A stretch of 13,317 nucleotides of DNA from an uncultured archaeon (GCA_964354495.1 CAYHAA010000031.1:1-13317); one strand, 5' to 3'; positions 1 through 13,317 are shown, counted from the stretch's first letter. A program made the numbers and translations. The notes: a model not told the origin generated them from the sequence alone.

Positions 1-94
1 AGGGTGGCTCAACAGGAGAGGTAAAGAGCAAATTCTCTATGCTTCGGGCAACCTGTACGATTGCACCGCATTCCCCGCCGTCGAAGGCCCGTAC
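1..94. repeat. Dispersed repeat copy R1 (may continue left of the window); close homolog of 12793-12886
   Basis: AGGGTGGCTCAACAG...AAGAGCAA.TTCTC...GC.TCGGGCAACCTG(T)ACGATTGCACCGC.TTCCCC...GTCGAAGGCCCGTAC aligns end to end with 12793-12886; both are 94 nt. Confidence 0.9.
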
Positions 95-146
95 TGCCGC
101 TGGTCAAGAAACCCGATATAATGAGGACGAGTCTTGTGTAATCGTG

Positions 147-2027
147 CTATTCTTTGGATAAGAGATGAGTCTTGAAGAAATCAATGCGACCTGCAAGTTC
201 CCTTACTGCTTCATCTTTTCGGATAGTGACATGACCGGATTCAGGCTTTACATGAAGTTCAAGAGGATGATTACGAGAATACAGCCGGTTTGCAAACTCG
301 AGAACCGGAGGAAAGGGTGTACGACTATCATTTGAGGCAACGCTTATCGCCAGTGGAGCCTTGATATCATCGACTCTGCTTATCGGTGACCGTTCGAGCA
401 TCAGAGCTCGATTCTCATCAGGATTGCCCCACATTTCCTTGATGAACTCCTTGAATATGGCATCACCATGGTCAGCCATGTACGTCCAATCCGCTACAGG
501 AACAACAGCATACCCGGCAGCCCATCTCTCAGGTTGGAATGCTAGTCCTGCTAGGGTCATGAAACCACCATATGATGCACCAGTAATGCCTACTCTCTTT
601 GGATCGATGCCAAAATTCTTGACAATATAATCCACTCCAGAGCTGACATCCTGCAGATCTGCTCGCCCAGCCTCTTGAAATAGGGACTTGTTGAATGCCA
701 ATCCATAGCCCGTCGATCCTCTAAAGTTCGGTGCGAAGACTGCAAAACCTTCCTGTGTGAAGACCTGTAGAGTACCCAAGAAAAAGTCCGAGAAATGTGA
801 AGACGGCCCCCCATGGATCCATGCCAAACAAGGATAGCCTCCAATAGGTCTTGGTCTAGAGGGGAGTAGTAGAAATCCATGGATGGTGGTCCCATCAAAT
901 GAAGAATTGTATGAGATTGATTTAGACTCAACAACAGGGAATTCTTCCGTGTCTATTAGTTCGGACTGCCAACGGGTCACTTTCTTGTTTTGACCACTCA
1001 TGAGATTATGAGACCAAAGCTCTTCAGGCATTGCAGCATCAGAATGATTGTAGAACAATAGCTGTTTACCCTTGTTATCTCTTACATAGTATGGTGTGTT
1101 TGTACCTATAGGCAAATTCAGCAATTTCATTGTGTTTTCATCTATATCTATCTCATGAACTGTTGAGCGTCCATCTCTCATTGCTTGTTGGTAGAGCTTG
1201 TTTCCATCAGGACTCCAAATGCATTGTGCAAGTTCTCCTTCAGGTTGCGGAAGCTCTCTCAACTCTCCAGTTTCAGCGTTGTAGATTGATAACCTTCCAA
1301 AGTCACCCTTGGGCTGAAGCAACGGAACAAGAGGCCGTTTTGGATTCCATTGCTGCAGAAACCAGTAAGGGGGCAGAGTAGGTATCTCAGAGATTACTTC
1401 TGCAGTTCCGGGATTGAATATAACAAGAGCACCCTCTTGCCATCCTCCTGGGCGAGCACCTTGAGCAAAAGCAAGACTGGGATGACCCCATTCAACAAGG
1501 ACCGGAACCAACCTCGCAACGCATTCATCATCAAGAGCCGGTTCTGGAGTTGCCTTTAGGTCATTGGAGATCTTCGATACATGATGACCATCCTCGTACG
1601 ATCCGCAATAGATTACATTAGCTCCATCAGGCGACCAATCAAACCAGAGAAGGCGATGAGGCTCGATTTCTGAAAACACCAGTTCTTGTATATCATCTGA
1701 TTGCCTAAAGCCACGAAGAGTGTCAAATCGACATAGGTATGATTTCTCCGAACCGTCGGGGTCTGCTGCGGCCAGAGTGTACTTATCATCAGGTGAAAGA
1801 AGAGCAGGCAACGGAACGAACTTGACAGTACTAGGCAGTAGAGTCTCTTTCTTCGTAGGTCTTCTCAAAGAACTTCTTATGAGAGAGTAGCCTCCAGACT
1901 CAGCTAGCCTCTGGTATAAGAAGAGGTCCCCGCTTTTCGAGAAGTCTGTTGGAGTTGTAAAATATGTCGCTTCAAGTGCAATCTTTAGACGTTCATAGAT
2001 GGATATCAAATGATTCCCTCCTAACAT
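147..2027 (-). CDS. S9 family (prolyl oligopeptidase / acylaminoacyl-peptidase-like) serine peptidase, 626 aa
   Basis: C-terminal alpha/beta hydrolase with IHGGP, NFRGSTGYG, nucleophile elbow GASYGG, Asp in NDSRT and His in ESGH; N-terminal WSPDG-type beta-propeller repeats. Confidence 0.92.
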   Translation of the reverse strand: MLGGNHLISIYERLKIALEATYFTTPTDFSKSGDLFLYQRLAESGGYSLIRSSLRRPTKKETLLPSTVKFVPLPALLSPDDKYTLAAADPDGSEKSYLCRFDTLRGFRQSDDIQELVFSEIEPHRLLWFDWSPDGANVIYCGSYEDGHHVSKISNDLKATPEPALDDECVARLVPVLVEWGHPSLAFAQGARPGGWQEGALVIFNPGTAEVISEIPTLPPYWFLQQWNPKRPLVPLLQPKGDFGRLSIYNAETGELRELPQPEGELAQCIWSPDGNKLYQQAMRDGRSTVHEIDIDENTMKLLNLPIGTNTPYYVRDNKGKQLLFYNHSDAAMPEELWSHNLMSGQNKKVTRWQSELIDTEEFPVVESKSISYNSSFDGTTIHGFLLLPSRPRPIGGYPCLAWIHGGPSSHFSDFFLGTLQVFTQEGFAVFAPNFRGSTGYGLAFNKSLFQEAGRADLQDVSSGVDYIVKNFGIDPKRVGITGASYGGFMTLAGLAFQPERWAAGYAVVPVADWTYMADHGDAIFKEFIKEMWGNPDENRALMLERSPISRVDDIKAPLAISVASNDSRTPFPPVLEFANRLYSRNHPLELHVKPESGHVTIRKDEAVRELAGRIDFFKTHLLSKE

Positions 2028-2052
2028 GAGTAGACTAATTTAGTAGTGCTCC

Positions 2053-2064
2053 TGACATAAAACT
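2053..2064 (-). promoter_or_regulatory. Putative TATA-containing promoter (AGTTTTATGTCA on minus strand) for the peptidase; identical 12-mer at 3356-3367
   Basis: Exact 12-bp match between 2053-2064 and 3356-3367. The TTTTAT core lies ~30 nt upstream of the ATG at 2027, a spacing compatible with a leaderless or short-leader archaeal transcript. Confidence 0.5.
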
Positions 2065-2110
2065 TGTTCGATGAACATACCATCTGACAAGAAGTCTTAG
2101 TGAAAATGAG

Positions 2111-2174
2111 AGGGCGGCTCAACAGCGAACAGCAAGGGCAAGTCCCCTGATTACCTGACCCCGTCAGTCTGTAC
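2111..2174. repeat. Dispersed repeat copy R2 (internally deleted); homology to R3 extends left to ~2053
   Basis: AGGGCGGCTCAACAGCGAACAGCAAGGGCAAGT matches the first 33 nt of R4 with 2 mismatches, then ACCTGAC, CCCGTC and GTAC blocks occur in the same order as in R4. Preceded by an A-rich tract (TGAAAATGAG). Confidence 0.85.
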
Positions 2175-2179
2175 TCCGT

Positions 2180-2258
2180 ATCCATCTGAGATGGATGAAC
2201 ATTGAAGAATTGTTCATGGGAGTGGCGCAGTGGCTTTTGGGGACCACCTTCTGGTGGT
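2180..2258. other. Cluster of perfect short hairpins 3' of the minus-strand nuclease gene (possible terminator or RNA stability elements)
   Basis: ATCCATC-TGA-GATGGAT (2180-2196), ATGAACA-N9-TGTTCAT (2195-2217), ACCACC-TTCT-GGTGGT (2243-2258). Confidence 0.45.
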
Positions 2259-2295
2259 GGGTTCTTTATTCTCTAATAACTCACACTTGTTCCTG

Positions 2296-3306
2296 TCATG
2301 GTATTGAAAATGCTTTCTGCAATATTCCTTTTTCGATGCCTTTTGCTTTCTTACTTTTATAGCCAATGGTTTTATTCCGAAAGTATCTCATCATTATTTC
2401 CTTATCACTAGAAACCTCGCTCTCAGAGATATATTGGAATATGCTTTCCCATGTAACCCTTAGAAACTTCCTTCGCTGATTCTCCTTGATGTGCTTCCCA
2501 AAGATGGCCTCGATATCCGCCTCTCGTTTAGACCGCACCAGATTAATGAGATAGAAATCTACTTTCTGCTGATCTGCCATCCAAGTTCCAAGAATCCAGA
2601 ATCGTAATAATTCATACAGCCCCTCATTCACAACCTTTTCAAATTCGGAGTGAAAGACTTTGAAGAACCAATTCTCTCCACCAGTCAAGTATTTCTTTTT
2701 TCTTCTTGAAATGTAGGATGGGTCTTTCTTTGGGGGGTTCTTTTTGTTTGGAGCATCTAACTTTGCCTCAATGAAGAACAGTGCACGGTCAGTATGGATT
2801 ATAATATCCGGTTCTGAACCCTGAGATCTAGTTTCACCAAACTTGTCTCTTGCTGTATTCAGTGGCGACCAACCAGCATCTTCTTTCTGACTATATGACC
2901 AATAGATTACTTCAGAGGATTTAGGTGATGTGTTGGTTATAGAGCTCAACATTCTTTCGACAAGATTATTCTTCTCCAAGAATCTAAAAACATTCCAACA
3001 AACGGCATCTTCGCAATTGTCGTGTTCCATTCGACACCTTCTTTTAAAAACCTTAATTCTCTCTAATAACTCTAAGTCTAGCTGTTCTTTCCAGAGCAGA
3101 TTATCTGATACGTTCGGGTATTGAAAGGTTGAAGGGGAGATGACAATTCTGTCTCGGGGACACCTGAAATTCTCTCTAAATTCTTGGCCCTTTGTTTCAT
3201 TTGTCATTTTTTCAACAATTTCACTGCAACCTTTAACTGGACATTCAACTTTTGTGTCGGTAATTTCGATTTTTTCCTTCAATTCCTCTGCACCGAGCAT
3301 TTTCAA
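2296..3306 (-). CDS. PD-(D/E)xK putative restriction endonuclease (PGN_0703-like), 336 aa, with N-terminal Cys cluster
   Basis: SEPDIIIHTDRALFFIEAKL catalytic motif; upstream EDAVCWNVF motif resembles the PGN_0703 family; CPVKGC...CPRD possible Zn site; visibly more AT-rich than its neighbours. Start is TTG 3306 or ATG 3300. Confidence 0.7.
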   Translation of the reverse strand: MKMLGAEELKEKIEITDTKVECPVKGCSEIVEKMTNETKGQEFRENFRCPRDRIVISPSTFQYPNVSDNLLWKEQLDLELLERIKVFKRRCRMEHDNCEDAVCWNVFRFLEKNNLVERMLSSITNTSPKSSEVIYWSYSQKEDAGWSPLNTARDKFGETRSQGSEPDIIIHTDRALFFIEAKLDAPNKKNPPKKDPSYISRRKKKYLTGGENWFFKVFHSEFEKVVNEGLYELLRFWILGTWMADQQKVDFYLINLVRSKREADIEAIFGKHIKENQRRKFLRVTWESIFQYISESEVSSDKEIMMRYFRNKTIGYKSKKAKGIEKGILQKAFSIP

Positions 3307-3355
3307 CTCTTATCATTCCCTCCATGACATAAGCAGACCAGTTTAGTAATACCCT

Positions 3356-3367
3356 TGACATAAAACT
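3356..3367 (-). promoter_or_regulatory. Putative TATA-containing promoter, copy of 2053-2064
   Basis: Identical 12-mer TGACATAAAACT at a similar distance from the repeat core as in R2. Confidence 0.45.
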
Positions 3368-3412
3368 CGTTTGGCGAATATACTATCTGACTAAAAACTG
3401 TTGAAAAAGAAA

Positions 3413-3490
3413 AGAGTGGCTCAACAGCGAGCAGCAATAGACTGGTTTCAGAGAGGATAAACTCTGCGTTTCTTGGGTCGAAAACTCACT
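3413..3490. repeat. Dispersed repeat copy R3 (most diverged; right boundary approximate)
   Basis: AGAGTGGCTCAACAGCGAGCAGCAA matches R4 at 23/25; a distal GCGTT...GTCGAA block is retained; A-rich tract (TTGAAAAAGAAA) on the left as in R2 and R4. Confidence 0.75.
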
Positions 3491-3579
3491 TTGCAGCTGG
3501 AATTGCATTGATAACTCAAACGAACAACTTTCTTATTGAAAGGAAAGCCTCATTGTGATCATATCGTGGTGAAGGACTA

Positions 3580-4383
3580 ATGAACATTGATGAGTTCATA
3601 GAGAAACTAAAAGAGATCCGGGATTCTGGATTTGTCGAGTCCCACAGAGCGGGAGATACAGGAATTGGCAAAACTCTCGAAGATAAGTTAGAAATCAATG
3701 AGAACAATATAGCTGGTCCTGATTTTAGTGTTTACGAGTTAAAATCTGGCAGAAGGCAATCCAGTTCAATGATTACGCTTTTTACGAAAACGCCCGATCC
3801 TAAGGGAGCAACAAAGGAACTAGTAGACCATTTCGGTTACAAACATCGAAAGGGGTCTTCCAAAACAAGACAGGTGACTCTTGTTCATGTAGCTGAAGAA
3901 AGCGAATTCATTCCACTTGAAGACAAGGAGCTTCATGTCACTGTGGATGCACTCAGACCAAACAGCGTCGGATTGCAGCTTAAGTTCGTTGGAGATAGAT
4001 TGTACTTCAAGAATGACAAAGGTGTCATCGCTTACTATGACAGGGATGAGTTGGAGAAGACATTTGAGAAGAAGTACAAGAGCATGGTCTATGTCATAGC
4101 AGACTGCAAAAGCGACGGGAAGAGAGAGTCCTTTTGGTTTAACGAGGCATATAGACTTGATAGATTCGGTTTCTCAACATTCTCCAAATTAATCAAAGAT
4201 GGTCTTCTAAAGGTCGATTTACGTGTGGGACATTATCCAGATGGAAGAGTGCACGACCATGGGACTGGTTTCAGAATCTTACCTGTTCATTTTCCAAAAT
4301 GCTTCGAAGTGATTGAATGCATCCTGCCACTTGAAGAAGTATACCAAAAGGCAATCATTCCGGAACTGGATGGAAGAAACTGA
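3580..4383 (+). CDS. MvaI/BcnI family type II restriction endonuclease, 267 aa
   Basis: GDTGIGKTLED...NENN...PDF...ELKS.R...MITLFTKTP and C-terminal HDHGTGFRI are typical of this family; adjacent to a methyltransferase. Confidence 0.88.
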   Translation: MNIDEFIEKLKEIRDSGFVESHRAGDTGIGKTLEDKLEINENNIAGPDFSVYELKSGRRQSSSMITLFTKTPDPKGATKELVDHFGYKHRKGSSKTRQVTLVHVAEESEFIPLEDKELHVTVDALRPNSVGLQLKFVGDRLYFKNDKGVIAYYDRDELEKTFEKKYKSMVYVIADCKSDGKRESFWFNEAYRLDRFGFSTFSKLIKDGLLKVDLRVGHYPDGRVHDHGTGFRILPVHFPKCFEVIECILPLEEVYQKAIIPELDGRN

Positions 4384-4409: not shown

Positions 4410-5699
4410 TTAGACCTTTCGCAGAATAACTATGTGCTCATTGTGCATTGTATCAGCCTTGAACCCTTCGACATTCTCTGGCGCATTCTGCCAAGGCATC
4501 CTCTTGGTTGGGATATTCCGAGGGATTGTGCACTCATGGTCGAAACCTAGAACTGTGCCTAGCTCTGCTGTAATCTTGTCCGTTGGAATTCGCACCCGAG
4601 CCATCAGACGGTTGCCAATCACAATGCACGCATGTCCGTTTCTCTTCAACTTCTGATACATTGTTTCAATAGATTGATTGTAGTCAAAGAAGAAATTGAA
4701 AAACGCCTTCGCCCGTTTTGGGCTGTTCTTGCGTACTCTCTCATAGGTCTCATTCAGAGTCTTGCTTTCAAGAAGAGTCTCATCAAATTTCTTAGAATTA
4801 CTGCCACCAAGCCCTCGCCTGTCTACCGATTGCACCTGTTCATAGTCAAGTCCAATCCAATGCGCAGGATATCGTGAGAATTGCCCATATGCAACAGTAG
4901 TACTGTGATCACCGTATGGGGGAGATGTGACAATAAGGTCAATAGAACTGTCATCTATTGGGGCTTCTCTGTTGTCAGCATATATCACTCTCGACATACT
5001 ATAGTCTTCCGGCAGCGCCTTCACAAAGGGTGCCATCAGAGGGATGCATCTTCTGACATTGGCTCGGAAGACTTCATAGACATCAGGAGTGAACGACTTC
5101 TGCTCATCCTCCTTCATTCGAACAATCTTGAACTCTGCCTTCTTCAAGTTGGATGTCTCTCGTGCTGTGTGCGCTAGGCAGAGTCTAAAGAAGTCCCTGA
5201 CAGGTTCATCCTCAACTGACTCGATTGCTTTCTTGATGACTGCTAGGTCAGCCTGAACATATTCCTTGAACCAGAGATTTGCGTTATGCATCGCTGGAAT
5301 TTCGAGGGTACCATGTAACTGCTTTCTGACTGATGCTATCTTGTTACTAAGCCTCTCGCTTGCTCGACGAAGAACATCGTTATCAATTGGGGTCGTCTTG
5401 ACCTTTGAAAGGAATACTGCGAAAGGATTGAGATCAGTACCGACTGATGTTCTACCCGTGAGCATTGACTCAACGAGTATTGAACCAGAACCACAGAATG
5501 GGTCCCAAACCAAGTCATCCTTTTCTGAATAGCGCTCAATGAGCTTCCTCGCAACCTGAGGAATCATTCTGGCTGGGTATGGATGGAGACCGTGAGTCAT
5601 GTACTTCGTGTCTGCCCCTGCAAACGTCCAGTCCTCTACTGGTTCTTCCCTATTGTCAGGGTCGAAGTCAGGCAATCTACTCTGTTCCATCATTACCAT
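4410..5699 (-). CDS. DNA methyltransferase, probably N4-cytosine, alpha-class motif order (M.MvaI-like), 429 aa
   Basis: THGLHPYPARMIPQV, motif I DPFCGSG precedes motif IV TSPPY; convergent with the REase (26-nt gap). The target sequence cannot be read from this. Confidence 0.9.
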   Translation of the reverse strand: MVMMEQSRLPDFDPDNREEPVEDWTFAGADTKYMTHGLHPYPARMIPQVARKLIERYSEKDDLVWDPFCGSGSILVESMLTGRTSVGTDLNPFAVFLSKVKTTPIDNDVLRRASERLSNKIASVRKQLHGTLEIPAMHNANLWFKEYVQADLAVIKKAIESVEDEPVRDFFRLCLAHTARETSNLKKAEFKIVRMKEDEQKSFTPDVYEVFRANVRRCIPLMAPFVKALPEDYSMSRVIYADNREAPIDDSSIDLIVTSPPYGDHSTTVAYGQFSRYPAHWIGLDYEQVQSVDRRGLGGSNSKKFDETLLESKTLNETYERVRKNSPKRAKAFFNFFFDYNQSIETMYQKLKRNGHACIVIGNRLMARVRIPTDKITAELGTVLGFDHECTIPRNIPTKRMPWQNAPENVEGFKADTMHNEHIVILRKV

Positions 5700-5703
5700 T
5701 CTA

Positions 5704-5728
5704 TCTCCTGTTGTTAGCTGTTATATAT
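5704..5728 (-). promoter_or_regulatory. Putative TATA box and Shine-Dalgarno of the methyltransferase
   Basis: Minus strand ATATATAA (5728-5721), then AGGAGA (5709-5704), then ATG at 5699. Confidence 0.55.
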
Positions 5729-5773
5729 CCAGTCCTCAGTATCTCTGAGTGTATCCTGCTCATTGATTCCTTC

Positions 5774-6300
5774 AGAAACGTAGGAGGTGATCCCCGATCT
5801 GTTGGTAGGAAGAGAAGATGCCCTGCTTGTGCCCGTGCAGGGACGTCCGACCTGCTAAGTAACAGTCGAAACCTGGAACCCCTAGTCCGACCGCAGTTGG
5901 TGAGTGAAACTTCTCCACCTTCAACTTCCATGTTCAGCACTCCTCATGACTCCTGTCACCAGCAACCAGCAGGACCTCTCCAGCTGGGCGTGCATGAGTT
6001 TCGCTGTGCCTCATTGGAGCATGACTCCTCTTCACAGACTGAGCATCTGTCCGCTGCGCTGTATTATCATGGTCACCAGAACCCACGATGGCAGACGGCG
6101 TTTCCATGGTCTTTTCCATGGCTTGGTCGGTACTACTCGCAGACTCCTCAAGAGAGGTCTGGTCATAGCAGTCAGCCACGGTGCTCCCTACAAGCGAAGC
6201 TGGCAACTTCTTGGGAACTGAGGACATCCCTTTAGAACGAGCCCTCCGGGTCTTCGGGGAGGCCTTCCGTATTGGCGGAAGCCAAGTCCCTAGTCCTTCC
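5774..6300 (-). ncRNA. Putative TnpB omegaRNA (scaffold overlapping the 3' coding tail and trailer; candidate guide ~5793-5774); boundaries uncertain
   Basis: Position 3' of tnpB (established for TnpB omegaRNAs); hairpins such as CCCTGC-N10-GCAGGG near 5821-5842 and CTTCCG-N6-CGGAAG near 6265-6280; a ...GGGGATCAC end resembling IS605-type right ends. Inferred, not demonstrated. Confidence 0.45.
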
Positions 6301-7676
6301 TCACCCCTCAAGGAGGGAATGAGCCTAATCAAACGCAGACCGATGTTGATCGCTGCGTTCTTGTCCGCGTTATCGCGGTACCCACATGTGTGACAGAGGA
6401 AATAGCTCTGCTTTGGTCGATATCCTGTAGACCCACACTTGTGACACTTGATGCTGGTCCAAGCCTCCGGAACTGAAAACACCCTCTTGGGATTGAATCC
6501 ATTCAGACTGAGCTTGTGTTGGAGCGCGTTGGTGATGCGAGCAAAGGACCATCGGTTTATCAGCCCACGAAACCGGCTCCCCTTTCCATCACCCTTTCGT
6601 GCGCGATTACGGATTCCTTTTAGTTGCCCTATTGCGACAAAGAGATCATAGCGTTGCGCCAGTTCAAGAACGTGCTCGGAGAGCTGTTTCACGAGCTTCC
6701 CGTCATAGTCGAAACTGACATTCTCACGCTTAGAGCTCATTGCACGAAGGCGTTTCGTGACCTCATCTGTTGATTGAACATTCCTCAGACGGGTGTCGCG
6801 CTCCACCTGGAGGCTTGCCACCATCCCATCATAACGCTCAATCTGTTTCGCTTTTTCGCAGTCGGTCCAGAACCTGACCTGTCGAAAGCCGCTCTGAGTC
6901 AGTACAACAGAACAGACTGCCTTCTTTATCCCGAGGTCTATCCCTATCACTGCAGGGGGTCTTTGTTCAGGCTTGATCGAAGTGACATCGACCTTGACCT
7001 TGAAGACCACCCACCACTTTCGCTTCCTGTCCTTCACAATCTGAATGGACTTCCTCTCTCCCAGACTCAATTGGTTGAGATGATAAGAGGAAGGACTCAG
7101 AGGAATTGCCAGTCTATCGTGACGTACTCTTCCTTCTCTCACTGAGTCGAGAGCATCACGAAGGATGAGCCAGTGCTTGATCTCCTTGTCAGGAGTATAC
7201 ACAAACTCGAACATCCTCGTGAACATGTGACGAGGCAGCTTCCTCGAACTGTACCCCTTTGCCTGTAGGGGCTTGTTCCTACCTAGAGCGAGATACACCT
7301 TCCACATTGCAATGGCTGTCTCTCGGCACTCCTGGAGTTCATTTGTTGAGATGTTTGGGAATCGTTGTTTGAAGTCGTGAGGAACGTTCTTCGTATCAGT
7401 CCGCAGTGTCAGTTCGTCTAACTTTCCAGCATCGAGTTGTTTCTTGTTCGTTCCAGCAAGGAGGTTTCTCTCATGTTTCTCAATTACTCCCAGATAGGCC
7501 TTGATGACTCTGGTGTCCCTTCCTGTGATTCTGGACAGGCGTGTCTTCTGTCTCTCCGTCATCACATCCCATCGGACAGGGACTTTGACCGTCGTCATCA
7601 CGCCACTGGAGCGACCCATGAGATTCCGCCTCGCGTATATAAATTCCCGACCTGTTTCCGGTCGAGGGAGTTTCAC
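5934..7676 (-). CDS. tnpB: TnpB-family (IS200/IS605, solo IS1341-like) RNA-guided endonuclease with rearranged RuvC-II and long C-terminal tail; true start probably 7619 or 7598
   Basis: RuvC-I VIGIDLG, Zn ribbon CHKC...CHTC, RuvC-III NADKNAAINI. The canonical RuvC-II Glu position reads AIGQL, with an alternative Glu in VPEAWTS. TTTATATA at 7643-7636 lies inside the annotated N-terminus. No tnpA in the window. Confidence 0.88.
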   Translation of the reverse strand: MKLPRPETGREFIYARRNLMGRSSGVMTTVKVPVRWDVMTERQKTRLSRITGRDTRVIKAYLGVIEKHERNLLAGTNKKQLDAGKLDELTLRTDTKNVPHDFKQRFPNISTNELQECRETAIAMWKVYLALGRNKPLQAKGYSSRKLPRHMFTRMFEFVYTPDKEIKHWLILRDALDSVREGRVRHDRLAIPLSPSSYHLNQLSLGERKSIQIVKDRKRKWWVVFKVKVDVTSIKPEQRPPAVIGIDLGIKKAVCSVVLTQSGFRQVRFWTDCEKAKQIERYDGMVASLQVERDTRLRNVQSTDEVTKRLRAMSSKRENVSFDYDGKLVKQLSEHVLELAQRYDLFVAIGQLKGIRNRARKGDGKGSRFRGLINRWSFARITNALQHKLSLNGFNPKRVFSVPEAWTSIKCHKCGSTGYRPKQSYFLCHTCGYRDNADKNAAINIGLRLIRLIPSLRGEEGLGTWLPPIRKASPKTRRARSKGMSSVPKKLPASLVGSTVADCYDQTSLEESASSTDQAMEKTMETPSAIVGSGDHDNTAQRTDAQSVKRSHAPMRHSETHARPAGEVLLVAGDRSHEEC

Positions 7677-7856
7677 TCAACCTCTTTCTCCGGAGATTGA
7701 CTGATAACCTCCACACTTTATCTGATGCAGGGAAGTATATAAATTCATTAAACGTATTTCATATTATTGAGATATATTGTCCAATAGTAGGATATTGGGC
7801 AAAATAGAAAAGGGAATATCCCGCTACACTAGCACATTGCGTCTGGAGACGATTAA

Positions 7857-10800
7857 GTGTCATCCACGGAGCCAGCGGAGATCATAGTAAATGCACAGAT
7901 TCTTGGTCTTAGAGCTTTAGTTGATTTGCTGAGAGAACGAACAACCAAGGACACCCGATACTTACATACACTAGGACAGCAGCGTCTGCTATCAGCGCTA
8001 GAAGAGTGGCAACAGAGCATCGAGCACGGAAGCCCCAGGTTCAATGCGGTTGCAGAAGAAGAAAAACATCTTCGAGATTTCGAGCTTGAGAACATCTGGG
8101 AAACAACAAGTAGCTATGGTAACACTGAAACAAAACGTGTCAGAAGCGAGAGAGATGGAGTAGTAGGGCCTCTCAATAGACTCATCAACATCTTCGGAGG
8201 CGAGTTGAAAAATCACTTTCTTCTCCTGTATCCACTTGAAGCACCTGCTAGGATTGGCAGACAAAGGAGCAAGACAGTCTGGGGATATCAAAGTGAAGAA
8301 CTGGGTGATGTCCCTGTCGCTCATGGAGTAGACCTGCCTGAGCTTGATCTGGCGGATATGGTCCGATCTTTCGGTCGGGAACTGTGCCGGAAGTCGTTTA
8401 TCTTCGGGGCTCCTACAAATGCCTTTGATGCATACTGCTTTCTTCTCATTCGCCATCTTTCGTCATATGTAGACTATGTCTATACCAATGGCCGGTGCGG
8501 CAGTGCTCAGTTCCTGCGTTCGAAAACAAAGGCAGACAAGAAAGTAAAGGAGGACCCCTGTGCTGCTGAGGTCCTACGAGAGATTGTCGATGAACTAGGA
8601 AGTCTGTATGGTAGAGGGCCTACTCCTCTTTCATCACCATCAAGAATCCAAGAGAAGAGAGGGAAGCGTACAACAAAGAAGTTCTTCAAAGATCAGATTG
8701 AGAAGCTTCATAGACTAAGTAAAAAGAGACCGCAAGAGAAGAAGGAACTGCTGACATGGGCCAAGTTTCTCGAGACACTCACAGCCAGTAAGAAGCCAAA
8801 ACTACGAGATAGCGATGCTCAACACCTCTACGAGATTGTCCGGAATATTTCCAGATATGAAGGCGACAAATATCACAGATTTCTGACTGATGGATTGCCG
8901 CAGGTCTACAAAGCCGAATCAGTGATTTTACAGGGAGACCAATTCCTTCAACGGGGAGAAGACATCCTTATTGTCGGAGAATCCAAGATTCGGACCGATG
9001 AAGGATCTGGTCGAATAGACCTTGCAGTATACATAAGGACCGAGATACCTAACCCAAACCGACCTGGAAAAATAGCCGTCATGAGACCAATCGGAGTCTT
9101 TGAGATAAAATCACAGACCGGTTTCGACTGGGAGATTAGGACCAAGAAGACAAGAGGAAAAAAGAAGAAGACTGTTGTAAGGTTCATCGTGAGAAAGAGA
9201 GGGCTCACCGATGACGAATGGACTAATGCCCTTGCAGAGGTACCATCAAGAGGTGCAATTAGGCAGTTGAACCTCTACGCCTCTGGACTTGTCAGAGAAT
9301 ATAGAAGACTGACTGGAGATGAGACTGTCACGGATATTCTCAAAGGCGTCATTCTTGTTGACACACAGTTCGATGTAACTCTCAACAGAGAACTAGTGAT
9401 GTCTCTCCTGAAAGACGTCGCGAGTAGTCAGATTCTGAATGGCAAGGTTGGGAAAGGCAACCGATTGCTGATTCGGTCGAAGAGTTCAATGGCAAAGAGA
9501 GCGGCACTTGTGCTTCTGTCATCAGACAAAGGACAGGCTGAAGGGTTGAAGTCAGAGAGAAAAGCACTGGACTCTAAGGTCCTGTACAATCCCTTATCCA
9601 ATGTTGAAGGTGGTTCTTCACGACATATTATCTACCTGAGTGCAAGGTCTGCATCTAACTCCGGTTTCACTTCTGCATGGATTGCGCGATACTGGCACGG
9701 AATGCAGTATCTTCAACAACTGAGTGAGGACCATGGGAACAGACCAGTCGTATGGCTAGACCTTACTGGTGATTTTAGTGATAGCAACCTCGCGAAAGTT
9801 CGACTCAGAATGCAGCACCAAGACGCTGCGACAGAAACCTTCTTCGATAACATCAGGTTTATCGACCTCTCAGCCAATGTTGAGGGATTCTTATTCAGGG
9901 GAACAAATCCGCCAAATATACCAGCGCTTGGCAAGTGGCAGGACAAGATTGTGGTCGTGAGTGGGTGGGAACGGATCGAGAAGTCGACGCCGCCTCGATT
10001 GAAAAGCGCACTAGCTGAACTTGAGAGATACCTAGTCCAGGAGATGCATCGTACCGGATGCCCATCTGTCTGGTTTCTCGAGCCAAGACCCGACGAGAGG
10101 ACCTCGGAGATATATCACACAAGGTGCTTGATTCCCTTTTGGTCTTCTTCTCCTCATCAACAATATGTCACAGATGTTGTCTGGAATCTTCCGATTCGTC
10201 CGTACACATCAGTTCAGACCACTCCAATGCTTGATGACCTTCGAGTTATTGTCTACCAGACAAAAGATACTATCAAGACTGAGGCGATTGAGTTTCCACT
10301 CCTGAGGGACTGGTCTTCAAGGTTCTGGAGCAAGCGTAGCAAGAGAAAGACTTCGAAGGTGCGCAGCAAAGAGAGCAAGGGGAGAGTTGCGCTCACTCCG
10401 CAAGACGTGCTAGGCAGTGCTCAGCTCTCGAAAGACCTTATCTTTGATTCCATAGACCTCATTCCCTGGCTTCGAGACCTCTGGCATCAAGACTTTGCGA
10501 GGACACCAAATGACATCCGTCAGGATGTCCGATTCGATACTACAACCCTGTATGGTAATCCATCACCACGGTCAGGTGTCATGTCGCGAATGATGTATCG
10601 TGCCAAGATCAAAGGTACACGAGGAAAAAGGGGCTATATGACCTCTCAGCAACTGATTCCTAAGGAATCAATCACTCATCCAAGACACTACAGAAGATAT
10701 CGCCGCATCCAGAGAAATACTCTGAATACACAGAGCTACAGCGCACCAGATGAGAGACTTCTCGAGTTCAGACAATTCAGGGAGCAGACTGCTCAAAATG

Positions 10801-12749
10801 TGGAGGTCAGGCGTCTGAGGCAGACCCTGACTCTTCTATCGAAATGGAAGGAACCATGGACATCAGAATCAGCGTGGCAAGAGTTTCTCAAACAGCTGAA
10901 GCAGGTGGTTCCAAAAGAAGGGGTTCTTGTTCAGATTGGTGACATCAACGAGATCTCAGAATTGCTGAGGAACGATGACATCTCATCCAGTTTCTGGAGC
11001 TCTCTGCTATGGACTCGAGAGGGAAGACTTGGAAGTCATCTACGGTTGTGCGAGCAAGACCATCTGAGGGATCTTCTTGAGACTAATCCCCACGTGACCA
11101 CCTCCTTTGGCAACTATCTTTTCCTCCTCCTGCTTGCAGTCTCCAGAAAATACCCCGAACTGACTATTGAACAGATGCAACATCTCTGGGAGCCCGTGAA
11201 GGCATGGCATCTTCGTCAGGTCGGATTCTACCTGAGAAAGACGCAGGGGGAGCGCATTGAACCGAAGTTCGATGTCAGAGCTGTCTGGTCAAATCTATGC
11301 AAGAGAGCCACAACATTGATCAAGATGTCATTGCCGGTCCAGTCAGCTGTTCGATATGGACAACTGCTGATTGCCCCATATGGCGATGATTATGACTACT
11401 GGGTATTCATAGAGGACAGGTTCGACAAGAGCCGGTTTCAATCGGGACTTATCATCGGTCAGAATCCCTTTGCATCATCGACATTCATGAGATGGACAGA
11501 GATGGACAATCATGAGATTGCACTCCATGCGAAGTCTGTTGTAGCTGAAGAAGTCTACGACCTACTTGTGAGCAACGTCAGTGGAATCGAGTGTGTCTGG
11601 CTCTTAGCTGAGGGAGAATGGAATCTTCAGGGCGAGCTGGTCATAATTCCTCGCAAGAGGTCAGCAATAACCAGTATCAGAGGCATGCAAATCAAGCCGC
11701 TGGTAGCTGACCGAATTCCTGAAGTGCCGTTTGGTGTGAGAATGCCTCCTAGAATCAAACAACGAGTCAGAGAGGATCTCTCTCAGATTGCTCGTCTGCG
11801 TCAGAGCATCCTGAGTGTTCAGTGTGCTCTTGGGATCGACTCCGGTATGTACGCAGTCCGCTTTGAGGAGGGGCGAGAACAGATTGACATGAGAGTTGTG
11901 TATAGGACTTCGGATCTCTTACACATCCTCCGCATGCCTCTTGTGGAGGGCATTCCGTTACAGAGTTCACAAGATTCAGATGTGTATCTGACATGGAATC
12001 CGTACGAGGACATCGACTATGGCGAACTCCAGCTCTTTCGACCGTATGTGGAGAGGAAGACCCCATATGTGCATGTTCGGGTGCCACTTCCAATGACAAG
12101 TAGAGAACTTCTTGAACGACCTCCTGCAGAAGTGGAGATTATCATCTTTCATGATGAGAGCGAGTGCCCCATCGTTGATGGTAACGCTTCTGCTCATGGG
12201 TCCTGTTGGAGAGTGAAGGCTGAGGGCGAGCAGGAGAGTCCCCGCTTTGATGCGTTGACCGACCATGCCCTCTCAGACCATGATATCTCCAGTCTGATTG
12301 TTTCAGGGGAGGTCTTTCTTGAGGAGGGCAGATACAAGCTCAACATCACCTTTGACAGCAGTCCAAGTGCAAGAGAGGGCATTGTCTTCAGAGAGAGTAG
12401 ATTGATTGCACGAGCGCTTGGCTTGAAGTCAGTCACACCGGGTGTCTTTCTTGAGCTTGACACGGAGCAGCTGAAGTATGTACTCACCAACTATGGCGAT
12501 GGTATTGCAATGGGCATCTACTCATCTCTCACTGAAGAGAGGATCAGCTCGTTCAATCTCATCCCCCAGGGAAGATGGCAAATTGATGAGGTCATGGAGG
12601 GATTCATCGATGAAACGGAGGAGTTCATCGAGTCGTATTTCGGTAAGGGAGAGAGACCTGAGAAACGCATTATCGACTACGATGAGATACTTGAAGAAAC
12701 ACAAGACCTATTGAAGAGAATAAAGAAAGGACTACCTCCACTTAGATAG
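7857..12749 (+). CDS. Large uncharacterised protein, 1630 aa, with a PD-(D/E)xK nuclease domain and a possible degenerate P-loop/RecA-like domain
   Basis: Uninterrupted 4.9-kb ORF; GESKI...GRIDLAVY...VFEIKS...QLNLY matches E...D...ExK...QxxxY. IIYLSARSASNSGFTS / VVWLDLTG / IVVVSGWE follow the spacing of Walker A, the next strand and Walker B but lack GKT and DE. Confidence 0.75.
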   Translation: MSSTEPAEIIVNAQILGLRALVDLLRERTTKDTRYLHTLGQQRLLSALEEWQQSIEHGSPRFNAVAEEEKHLRDFELENIWETTSSYGNTETKRVRSERDGVVGPLNRLINIFGGELKNHFLLLYPLEAPARIGRQRSKTVWGYQSEELGDVPVAHGVDLPELDLADMVRSFGRELCRKSFIFGAPTNAFDAYCFLLIRHLSSYVDYVYTNGRCGSAQFLRSKTKADKKVKEDPCAAEVLREIVDELGSLYGRGPTPLSSPSRIQEKRGKRTTKKFFKDQIEKLHRLSKKRPQEKKELLTWAKFLETLTASKKPKLRDSDAQHLYEIVRNISRYEGDKYHRFLTDGLPQVYKAESVILQGDQFLQRGEDILIVGESKIRTDEGSGRIDLAVYIRTEIPNPNRPGKIAVMRPIGVFEIKSQTGFDWEIRTKKTRGKKKKTVVRFIVRKRGLTDDEWTNALAEVPSRGAIRQLNLYASGLVREYRRLTGDETVTDILKGVILVDTQFDVTLNRELVMSLLKDVASSQILNGKVGKGNRLLIRSKSSMAKRAALVLLSSDKGQAEGLKSERKALDSKVLYNPLSNVEGGSSRHIIYLSARSASNSGFTSAWIARYWHGMQYLQQLSEDHGNRPVVWLDLTGDFSDSNLAKVRLRMQHQDAATETFFDNIRFIDLSANVEGFLFRGTNPPNIPALGKWQDKIVVVSGWERIEKSTPPRLKSALAELERYLVQEMHRTGCPSVWFLEPRPDERTSEIYHTRCLIPFWSSSPHQQYVTDVVWNLPIRPYTSVQTTPMLDDLRVIVYQTKDTIKTEAIEFPLLRDWSSRFWSKRSKRKTSKVRSKESKGRVALTPQDVLGSAQLSKDLIFDSIDLIPWLRDLWHQDFARTPNDIRQDVRFDTTTLYGNPSPRSGVMSRMMYRAKIKGTRGKRGYMTSQQLIPKESITHPRHYRRYRRIQRNTLNTQSYSAPDERLLEFRQFREQTAQNVEVRRLRQTLTLLSKWKEPWTSESAWQEFLKQLKQVVPKEGVLVQIGDINEISELLRNDDISSSFWSSLLWTREGRLGSHLRLCEQDHLRDLLETNPHVTTSFGNYLFLLLLAVSRKYPELTIEQMQHLWEPVKAWHLRQVGFYLRKTQGERIEPKFDVRAVWSNLCKRATTLIKMSLPVQSAVRYGQLLIAPYGDDYDYWVFIEDRFDKSRFQSGLIIGQNPFASSTFMRWTEMDNHEIALHAKSVVAEEVYDLLVSNVSGIECVWLLAEGEWNLQGELVIIPRKRSAITSIRGMQIKPLVADRIPEVPFGVRMPPRIKQRVREDLSQIARLRQSILSVQCALGIDSGMYAVRFEEGREQIDMRVVYRTSDLLHILRMPLVEGIPLQSSQDSDVYLTWNPYEDIDYGELQLFRPYVERKTPYVHVRVPLPMTSRELLERPPAEVEIIIFHDESECPIVDGNASAHGSCWRVKAEGEQESPRFDALTDHALSDHDISSLIVSGEVFLEEGRYKLNITFDSSPSAREGIVFRESRLIARALGLKSVTPGVFLELDTEQLKYVLTNYGDGIAMGIYSSLTEERISSFNLIPQGRWQIDEVMEGFIDETEEFIESYFGKGERPEKRIIDYDEILEETQDLLKRIKKGLPPLR

Positions 12750-12773
12750 CAGACAGCATTTCTATTGATTAGA

Positions 12774-12792
12774 CAATGAATGAAAAATGAAA
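12774..12792 (-). terminator. Putative oligo-T terminator after R4 (analogous tracts at ~2101-2110 and ~3401-3412)
   Basis: Minus strand TTTCATTTTTCATTCATTG directly after the repeat core; T-rich tracts are the known archaeal intrinsic terminator type. Confidence 0.45.
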
Positions 12793-12886
12793 AGGGTGGC
12801 TCAACAGCGAACAGCAAGAGCAAGTTCTCCACTTTGGCATCGGGCAACCTGACGATTGCACCGCGTTCCCCGTCGAAGGCCCGTAC
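12793..12886. repeat. Dispersed repeat copy R4, in the 16S rRNA 3' trailer
   Basis: 94-nt homolog of 1-94, ending 64 nt beyond the 16S 3' end; followed on the minus strand by a T-rich tract. Confidence 0.9.
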
Positions 12887-12889
12887 CTC

Positions 12890-12945
12890 TCTTGCATTCC
12901 CGAAGGACTGCAAGACCAAGCTGCTTCTACCTCTATGAGATAGAA
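12890..12945 (-). other. Two hairpins in the 16S 3' trailer
   Basis: UUCUAUCUC-AUA-GAGGUAGAA (12945-12925) and UCUUGCAGUCC-UUCG-GGAAUGCAAGA (12915-12890, C(UUCG)G tetraloop, one G/A mismatch). Confidence 0.6.
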
Positions 12946-12959
12946 AACATAGGAGGTGA

Positions 12960-12990
12960 ATGATGGAAGACGAGATGACTCTCGACTTCT
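12960..12990 (-). other. 16S micro-intron I4, 31 nt, after A1531 (E. coli numbering), just 5' of the anti-SD core
   Basis: Central helix GAUG/CAUC, bulges GA^A and AU^U, intron stem GAAG-U-CGAGA / UCUCG-U-CUUC; predicted cuts give GGAUCACCUCCU exactly. The outer exon helix is minimal. Confidence 0.88.
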
Positions 12991-13022
12991 TCCATCCGCA
13001 GCTTCCGCTACGGATACCTTGT

Positions 13023-13052
13023 ATTTCGCCGCGCCACGAAGTGTAACGCAGT
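13023..13052 (-). other. 16S micro-intron I3, 30 nt, after A1499
   Basis: Central helix GUCG/CGAA (3 pairs plus G.A), bulges UA^A and AU^A, intron stem CUGCGU/GCGCGG; removal gives GUCGUAACAAGG. The boundary can slide by 2 nt; this register is the best BHB fit. Confidence 0.8.
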
Positions 13053-13155
13053 TACGACTTCTCCCCACTTGCCGTCCCAAGATTCGTGGTCGCCCAGTGG
13101 ACGACACCTCACCCAAGAACAGCTCGCGTGGAGCGACGGGCGGTGTGTGCAAGAA

Positions 13156-13185
13156 TTCCCCGGAGGCGCGAAAATCGCACCCCCA
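13156..13185 (-). other. 16S micro-intron I2, 30 nt, after ~C1386
   Basis: Central helix CCCU/GGGG, bulges GC^U and AA^U, 10-bp intron stem GGGGGUGCGA/UCGCGCCUCC; removal gives GUCCCUGCUUCUUGCAC (canonical length). Confidence 0.85.
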
Positions 13186-13232
13186 GCAGGGACGTATTCT
13201 CCGCGCGATAGTGACACGCGGATACTAGGGAT

Positions 13233-13262
13233 ATCCTGATGCGCATCGAAGTGGTGCGCAAA
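13233..13262 (-). other. 16S micro-intron I1, 30 nt, after A1339
   Basis: Central helix CCUG/CAGG, bulges GA^U and AU^A, intron stem UGCGCA/UGCGCA behind a U.U mismatch; removal gives CUGGAAUCCCUAG. Confidence 0.88.
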
Positions 13263-13317
13263 TCCAGGTTCACGCGGGTGAGTTCCAACCCGCGATCCCG
13301 ACTACGACTGGGTTTCG

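Follow-up and report, generated by a model that had tools for sequence, protein, structure and literature searches.

Homing endonuclease genes reside in archaeal rRNA introns, where the nuclease cuts the intron-less allele and the intron interrupts the recognition site. A related arrangement is known for TnpB and its omega RNA in IS200/IS605 elements, such as ISDra2 (Karvelis 2021, PMC8612924): the scaffold lies over the 3' end of tnpB, one guide follows right after the end of the element, and the target is the allele without the disruption, with a short TAM in front. A homing role for IS605-family TnpB is summarized in bioRxiv 10.1101/2023.11.20.567912. The standard task of a TnpB is to cut the 'empty' allele, upon which the element-bearing allele is copied in. 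In IStrons, a group I intron is combined with an IS605-type TnpB (PMC4227781, bioRxiv 10.1101/2023.11.20.567912), and the self-splicing intron is itself the transposon. For Asgard archaea, aCas1-TnpB loci have been reported (groups Cas1H-Asgard-1 and -2; Altae-Tran et al. 2023, PMC10691335) whose guide was left undefined, a variable stretch upstream of GTTCACTCA being suggested. Our full-text literature searches returned no report connecting TnpB guides with archaeal intron sites.

The window, i.e., the whole stretch of DNA that we analyzed, is the entire 13.3-kb contig C31 of a 3.3-Mb Thorarchaeota (Asgard) MAG with 97.7% completeness. On its minus strand, the 16S 3' end and trailer are followed by a 1630-aa ORF (on the opposite strand), tnpB, a 235-nt spacer and a DNA methylase gene. 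The features referred to below are the following:

12982..13317, minus strand: 3'-terminal 336 nt of the 16S rRNA gene, at the contig end (Rfam)
13220..13270, plus strand: site 1 in the host 16S, with GGAT (13220..13223), ACTAGGGAT, intron I1 and TCCAGGTT; the U1 target, split 9 nt from the TAM
12941..12997, minus strand: site 4 in the host 16S, with GGAT (12997..12994), GGA, intron I4 and TCACCTCCTATGTTTTCT; the 18-mer target, with the split 3 nt from the TAM
7857..12749, plus strand: partner ORF, 1630 aa, divergent from tnpB and of a type paired with tnpB paralogues, corresponding to what the literature calls 'aCas1'
5934..7619, minus strand: tnpB, encoding 561 aa if counted from the ATG at 7619 (a GTG at 7676 is the start in the ORF list), stop TGA at 5936..5934
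5887..6306, minus strand: predicted omega RNA scaffold region of approximate extent, overlapping the tnpB 3' end (DNA-level conservation among paralogues)
6125..6130, minus strand: candidate anti-repeat CCGACC, pairing with GGTCGG (class-specific complementarity, 33 scaffolds)
5896..5925, minus strand: terminal scaffold hairpin with the conserved loop GTTTCACTCAC at 5910..5900 (family alignments)
5887..5892, minus strand: GGTCGG, the scaffold 3' end and guide-adjacent motif (conservation is lost here; paralogue empty-site test)
5870..5886, minus strand: U1 (site 1), ACTAGGGGTTCCAGGTT, the scaffold-adjacent guide, matching the antisense strand of intron-less 16S
5837..5852, minus strand: head GGTCGG (5852..5847) and U2 (site 2), ACGTCCCTGC, with a 16S match over the first 10 nt only and a hairpin next
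5794..5799, minus strand: head of U3, GATCGG, with one mismatch to GGTCGG
5776..5793, minus strand: U3 (site 4), the 18-mer GGATCACCTCCTACGTTT, copying the intron-less 16S 3' end and the start of the trailer
5699..4410, minus strand: DNA methylase (MTase) gene, adjoined by an MvaI/BcnI-type endonuclease gene

From sequence comparison, we consider it probable (about 0.6) that an Asgard aCas1-TnpB element anchored beside the 16S gene carries a small guide array at its 3' end, to which the 18-mer belongs as one unit, and that the TnpB so guided recognizes, and probably cuts, intron-less 16S.

Like IS200/IS605 TnpB, the element has its scaffold over the tnpB 3' end, a guide right after the element end, and a target consisting of the undisrupted allele behind a short TAM. 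Unlike it, the locus strings together several guides where those elements have one, and its four targets are sites within an essential rRNA gene at a distance of several kb; a mini-intron that is presumably spliced, and not the transposon, would supply the protecting disruption; there is no Y1 TnpA gene, and the partner is a 1630-aa protein. As in IStrons, an intron and a TnpB guide system are functionally entangled and splicing would render the DNA disruption harmless, whereas the introns here are separate 30-nt hairpins in another gene, predicted to be host-spliced, and they would block the guide and not compete with it. In common with homing endonucleases, an intron-less rRNA allele would be cut and the intron interrupts the recognition site; the nuclease here is, in contrast, RNA-guided and encoded in trans outside the introns, with one enzyme for four introns. 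The likeness to aCas1-TnpB loci comprises the Thorarchaeota host, a giant ORF divergent from tnpB and GTTCACTCA downstream of tnpB. In contrast to the published description (PMC10691335), the guide starts after GGTCGG, downstream of GTTCACTCA, the guides are 16S-derived, and a Cas1 fold in the partner was not confirmed.

The tnpB product matched Pfam PF07282 (Cas12f1-like TNB domain; 6.8e-13), the NCBIfam model guided_TnpB (2.1e-26, 93 bits at a cut-off of 100) and PDB TnpB/Cas12f chains down to 2e-8. The locus combines the OMEGA features of a RuvC/TNB protein, a scaffold overlapping the tnpB 3' end with a variable guide, and a guide equal to the DNA after the TAM in the uninterrupted target. 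The RuvC-I and RuvC-III Asp residues align with 8j3r, and the canonical RuvC-II Glu is a Gly (AIGQL). Rearranged RuvC sites with a relocated Glu are regarded as active (PMC10691335), and by analogy with those rearranged branches a relocated Glu is possible in this TnpB; since the canonical RuvC-II Glu is absent, target cleavage is presumptive. No Y1 TnpA gene was found in the window, and its long ORFs had no match to any transposase family. Partner-type ORFs are paired with tnpB paralogues at at least four loci of the same genome. The 1630-aa partner gave no sequence match in Pfam, NCBIfam or PDB, and a Foldseek search with residues 750-1630 gave no match either; VIA-align of residues 130-700 returned a weak match to Cas4-like nucleases (Z 7.4 and 6.3; residues ~254-560). 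No Cas1 fold was found in the partner by Pfam, NCBIfam, PDB, Foldseek or VIA-align. Upstream of tnpB, at 7647-7680 on the minus strand, we also noted an inverted copy of the loop motif (TTGAGTGAAAC), then a hairpin ending in a further GGTCGG, then a TTTATATA box; this stretch may mark where a tnpB-only sub-element ends on its inner side, or it may have a regulatory function.

The scaffold end was located with eight tnpB paralogues of the same genome (43-48% identity). Their DNA is conserved through the last ~300 nt of the ORF and on to a hairpin with loop GTTCACTCAC and a short motif, beyond which all copies differ. This guide-adjacent motif is GGTCGG in the present subfamily and GGTCAG, GGTCAT, GGTCTT or GGTTTT in others, and conservation ends at the GGTC(G/A/T)N motif in the eight paralogues and in 33 scaffolds. 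The motif is complementary to a hexamer ~235 nt upstream, and across the 33 scaffolds, from this and related genomes, both co-vary in three or four states: CCGACC with GGTCGG (9/10), AAGACC with GGTCTT or GGTTTT, ATGACC with GGTCAT, and ATGACT with AGTCAT. When the classes are swapped, at most 4-5 of the 6 pairs are retained. For one paralogue (L6), empty sites in two genomes (G006 and G012) read ...TTGTACAT joined to AAGAAGTATATGG, the second part being the sequence after the motif in this genome. The guide therefore starts right after the motif, and the preceding target base belongs to a TAM ending in AT. The TAM of that paralogue is ACAT, and the apparent TAM of the present subfamily is GGAT or GAAT. 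Our first placement of the scaffold end, at ...CACTCACCA, was moved ~12 nt on to GGTCGG by more copies and the empty-site test. In the window, the boundary lies between GGTCGG and GGATCACC, in place of the GATCAC end that the first-pass annotation of this DNA had allowed for; conservation stops ahead of the 18-mer, and that annotation's refuting condition, an 18-mer that is invariant scaffold in homologues, was not borne out. Short RNA-library contigs (metatranscriptomes, three studies) matched only 5940..6306 of the 1.4 kb searched, one of them at 100% over 232 nt, which fits a stable scaffold RNA. Among these assembled contigs none covered 5400..5940, and they are uninformative on the omega RNA 3' end and the 18-mer.

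Minus-strand positions 5793..5776 read GGATCACCTCCTACGTTT, then CT, starting 141 nt past the tnpB stop. The 16S gene of the window reads GCGGATGGA, a 31-nt insert (12990..12960) and TCACCTCCTATGTTTTCT, and removal of the insert leaves a 17/18 match to the 18-mer. The location (~140 nt past the stop), the 17/18 identity to the intron-less 16S end plus trailer, and the interruption by I4 after GGA were as first annotated. Two same-genus 16S genes (G017 and G005) have the exact intron-less joint GGATGGATCACCTCCTATG, so the 'spliced' 16S end is a real allele. Anchored at its first base, U3 is exact over 13 nt to the G017 16S, where GCGGAT precedes the target. In the 3.3-Mb assembly, both strands taken together, GGATCACCTCC has a single occurrence, at the site of the 18-mer, and ~0.005 matches of 17/18 to the 18-mer are expected genome-wide (by arithmetic). 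Against intron-containing DNA alone, the 18-mer matched 14/15, a value reached in 7 of 500 shuffles; this match is marginal, and the decision was therefore left to the relatives.

Close homologues of this TnpB (62-80% protein identity) were collected from same-genus genomes, other Thorarchaeota MAGs and metagenomes. In the window, three units follow past 5887, with heads GGTCGG (U1, 5886..5870), GGTCGG (U2, from 5846) and GATCGG (U3, from 5793). The homologous loci have the same construction with 1-6 units each, in differing sets and orders. All 14 subfamily loci with a readable 3' flank (~12 distinct) carry units that copy 12-27 nt of intron-less 16S, and no 16S-derived units were found in tnpB copies of the 54% and 47% subfamilies. 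When 26 units from 10 loci were anchored at the first base and compared with the intron-less G017 16S, 20 mapped to four positions, the matching prefix being 9-24 nt long; for shuffled units it was mostly 7-9 nt, and at most 14 in 300. On either strand, the matches begin with the base after GGAT or GAAT, their targets being preceded by CGGAT or AGAAT, and each of the four positions spans one site at which Thorarchaeota 16S genes have a mini-intron of 30-31 nt:

Site 1, antisense: ACTAGGGATTCCAGGTT, best match 17/17 (L120 and L137; L127 too)
Site 2, sense: ACGTCCCTGCTTCTTGCA..., best match 27/27 (L138); 20 nt exact in another further locus
Site 3, antisense: ACCTTGTTACGACT, best match 14/14 (L131, L141, L143 and L120)
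Site 4, sense: GGATCACCTCCTATG, best match 15/15 to G017 (L126)

U1 matches the G017 16S at 16/17, with GCGGAT 5' of the target. U2 is degraded in the window, while site-2 units in relatives are exact over 17-27 nt (18 in L136, 17 in L140 and 27 in L138). No intact target for U1-U3 was found in the genome's own assembly. The unit next to the scaffold can be any of the four sites across loci, for instance site 1 (U1) in the window and site 4 in L126. Unit lengths are irregular (34-69 nt), and the heads measure only 6-12 nt or are degraded forms of the terminal hairpin. The tails resemble a shortened terminal hairpin plus head, with a full copy once (L131), and module duplication therefore belongs to the process. 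As in the omega RNA arrays of Sigma-associated TnpB and in CRISPR arrays (PMC10691335), a repeated guide-adjacent module with different guides lies downstream of the nuclease gene; the present units differ in their short or degenerate heads and irregular lengths, and direct repeats of at least 20 nt with uniform spacers, as in a CRISPR array, were absent.

The 18-mer itself recurs among the relatives. The first 12 nt of U3 are identical in G015, and a metagenome locus (L126) has a 16S-end unit matching the trailer of this window at 19/19 and G017 at 15/15. In L126, GGTCGG is followed by GGATCACCTCCTATGTTTT directly after the scaffold, so that the site-4 segment is the scaffold-adjacent guide. 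At the position of the U3 head, GGTCGG is found in G015, L126, L137 and L135. In G007, the position of the 18-mer continues into >100 nt of the 16S trailer repeat. These relatives, G007 and L126, decide for homology over chance, and the 18-mer is neither a chance match, nor invariant scaffold, nor an MTase promoter feature. The proposal that it belongs to a TnpB guide system and derives from the intron-less 16S end gained support from the guide-adjacent head copy, from its scaffold-adjacent place in L126 and from the target's position after GGAT. As the guide of this particular locus, the 18-mer fared less well: U1 is the scaffold-adjacent guide, and the 18-mer comes third in the row, 94 nt past the end of the scaffold, its head mismatched to the anti-repeat and without direct scaffold contact. 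In this genome the anti-repeat may pair alternatively with heads further downstream and so bring the 18-mer into use, or the 18-mer may be a guide in storage or in decay; the evidence for its use here is weaker, given the third position, the mismatched head and the hairpin (U2) in front.

Certain site-3 units of G023 and L121 correspond to intron-containing alleles, e.g., ACCTTGTTAATCGA at 14/14 to the G012 allele, which hints that an arms race fits better than simple protection. The unassigned units of G023 had no match to the 23S of the present genome, and no unit among the loci examined or in this genome matched the intron-less joint of the 30-nt intron in the Rpo1N gene (contig C3, ~192000). 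In G023 (L093/L015; C138 ~5340-5480), a second TnpB with 59% identity is inserted in the scaffold of one copy of this subfamily, just before CCGACC. It has 16S-derived units of its own, AAGGTATCCGTAGCGGAAG and (G)AAGTCGTAACAAGGTAT, which start after different bases and therefore probably rely on another TAM. Guides of other paralogues correspond to an antisense tRNA 3' end (L003 at C27:7137 of this genome and L032 in G012:C22) or resemble a tRNA T-arm (L002 at C6:13479 of this genome), and structural RNA genes seem to be preferred neighbors of this element family.

Alignment with intron-less genes of the same genus showed four inserts of 30-31 nt in the 16S fragment of the window, all on the minus strand:

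13262..13233, minus strand: I1, after GAACCTGGA
13185..13156, minus strand: I2, after ACGTCCCTGC
about 13052..13023, minus strand: I3, after GAAGTCGT(A)
12990..12960, minus strand: I4, after GCGGATGGA

The inserts have features of bulge-helix-bulge introns, being absent in close relatives and having a hairpin that joins the exon/intron ends; the hairpins are strong for I2 (z -3.6) and I4 (z -2.8) and weaker for I1 and I3. I1-I4 lie 9, 10, ~8 and 3 nt from the inferred TAM, and all introns observed lie 2-10 nt from it, in the seed where TnpB target pairing starts. In G045 (L151, C2) and the metagenome locus L121 (1835-1868), an unrelated 30-nt intron (I1') lies in the site-1 target, 2-3 nt from GGAT. 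A different intron in the same 20-nt target means that this target was split independently. Units and introns were then compared genome by genome:

G044: perfect 27-nt site-2 guide after the scaffold and an off-type site-3 unit; intron I2 only
G045: units for sites 1, 3 and 4; introns at all four sites
This window: units for sites 1, 2 (degraded) and 4; introns at all four sites
G015: site-1 unit (degraded, 14/17) and site-4 unit; introns I3 and I4, no I1
G017: no units, a 75-nt element remnant; no introns
G005: no units found; no introns

One exception is the site-3 unit of G044, a genome without I3; the head of this unit is off-type and its first base is missing. G045, the window and G015 have both a site-4 unit and an intron at site 4. 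G012 and G014 carry introns, but the incomplete assemblies of both yielded no TnpB of this subfamily. With so few genomes, all of them related, the co-occurrence of units and introns is not statistically independent. No 16S of this genome was found beyond the 336-nt fragment at the contig end.

Further observations concern individual 16S loci. In L121 (Ga0164311_10000125, 476-4165), tnpB lies ~356 nt downstream of a complete five-intron 16S with no giant ORF between, and this 16S bears a further insert, near position 890, to which no unit was found to correspond. In G017 (C205, ~134903), ~2.8 kb downstream of the intron-less 16S, there is a stray I4-like hairpin followed by ATCACCTCCTATG and trailer; recombination with stray copies of this type could add or remove I4. 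On the plus strand at 12955-12975 of the window, the 16S end with I4 reads AGGAGGTGA and then ATGATGG, a perfect ribosome-binding site plus starts that is repeated in the copies on contig C30; this is probably a by-product of the anti-SD sequence.

The first-pass annotation had proposed that TnpB may target the intron-less allele at I4. On the sequences compared, this was right at its core and mistaken in one detail, where in the RNA the 18-mer lies, and the phenomenon is larger than the 18-mer alone, extending to all four introns and 14 loci; the alignment of homologous 3' flanks that it had called for placed the scaffold end at GGTCGG and showed guides repeatedly hitting rRNA intron junctions, at the four sites. 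A TnpB with such a guide would recognize, and probably cut, 16S genes without the intron. The host's own 16S would escape because the intron splits the target seed. Protection would then come from introns in a linked essential gene and not from the transposon's own insertion, and introns and neighboring island would be kept, or spread, as a set. A single nuclease would thereby cover four sites that are too conserved for escape by point mutation. An extension of this reading, which we regard as quite unlikely, is that the array is written and not inherited: the Cas4-like/'aCas1' partner would capture 16S pieces next to GGAT or GAAT behind a duplicated terminal module, which would place the locus midway from a single omega RNA to a CRISPR array, with new units chasing escaping intron alleles and mini-introns being the only viable escape mutations at invariant rRNA sites.

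Alternatively, the 18-mer could be a relic of integration, namely the old 16S 3' end displaced when the island integrated with a replacement end, and functionless now; we judge this unlikely. The 16S end and trailer form a direct repeat between gene cassettes of the window (1-102, 2099-2152, 3398-3445 and 12750-13040), and the repeat is also found on two other contigs of the genome, C30 (eight copies) and C17 (63913-68938). In three of the C30 copies, the repeat extends over the terminal ~35 nt of 16S together with an I4-like hairpin, and Rfam detected no 16S gene on C30 or C17 despite these 16S-end copies. Such trailer repeats between unrelated gene blocks resemble a cassette array that has the end of the rRNA gene as its anchor. 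A paralogous TnpB element adjoins a displaced 23S end, and the G007 unit, continuous with the full trailer, fits a displaced 16S end in agreement with both the cassette-like repeats and the 23S-end paralogue. The G007 locus is also compatible with the idea, raised in the initial annotation, that the guide steers the island to the rRNA trailer. The degenerate state of the site-4 unit in G007, G023, L131 and L140 points the same way as a relic. However, homology ends after 12-20 nt, the length of a guide, in the window, G015, L137 and L141, and the units always start exactly at the head motif and correspond to sequence exactly after GGAT in the gene. Moreover, displaced gene ends cannot account for the units that copy three internal 16S sites, two of these in antisense. 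Since the displaced flank of a TnpB element is its guide, this alternative partly merges with the reading of the 18-mer as a unit of a 16S-targeting guide array.

There is a slim chance that the TnpB is a nuclease-dead, RNA-guided DNA binder (TldR-like) whose guides regulate or mark rDNA with no cutting. The Gly in place of the canonical RuvC-II Glu would agree with this, as would the presence of the element at one 16S-adjacent locus across several species (the window, G015, G044 and G045), with a remnant near the G017 16S; low mobility is typical of exapted TnpBs (PMC10691335). However, the RuvC-I and RuvC-III Asp residues are kept, rearranged sites with a relocated Glu are regarded as active (PMC10691335), and the rDNA targets in the host are split by introns, which would leave the guides without anything to bind at home. 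The remaining reading, that the match arose by chance or serves a plus-strand gene as its Shine-Dalgarno sequence (GGAGGTGATCC on that strand), has practically negligible probability and is refuted by the recurring unit pattern in the comparative data: one GGATCACCTCC is about the chance level for a 3.3-Mb genome and the match to intron-containing DNA alone is weak, but in >10 loci the motif holds a constant position with respect to the head motif and is accompanied by three other 16S-derived units, no plausible plus-strand start codon was seen by eye just downstream, the spanning plus-strand ORF (5579..6235) has no Pfam match and overlaps the MTase gene start and the tnpB 3' end on the opposite strand, and a distant MTase homologue lacks the motif upstream.

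We know of no accepted explanation for the patchy distribution of tiny, ORF-less introns at the most conserved sites of archaeal rRNA and essential protein genes. Guides that read the intron-less versions and are encoded a few kb away provide a concrete, testable cause for such mini-introns. In a natural drive, homing or toxin-antidote-like, the mini-introns would serve as the resistant allele; alternatively, they would be the only escape for sequences that are unable to mutate. [quoted passage not shown]
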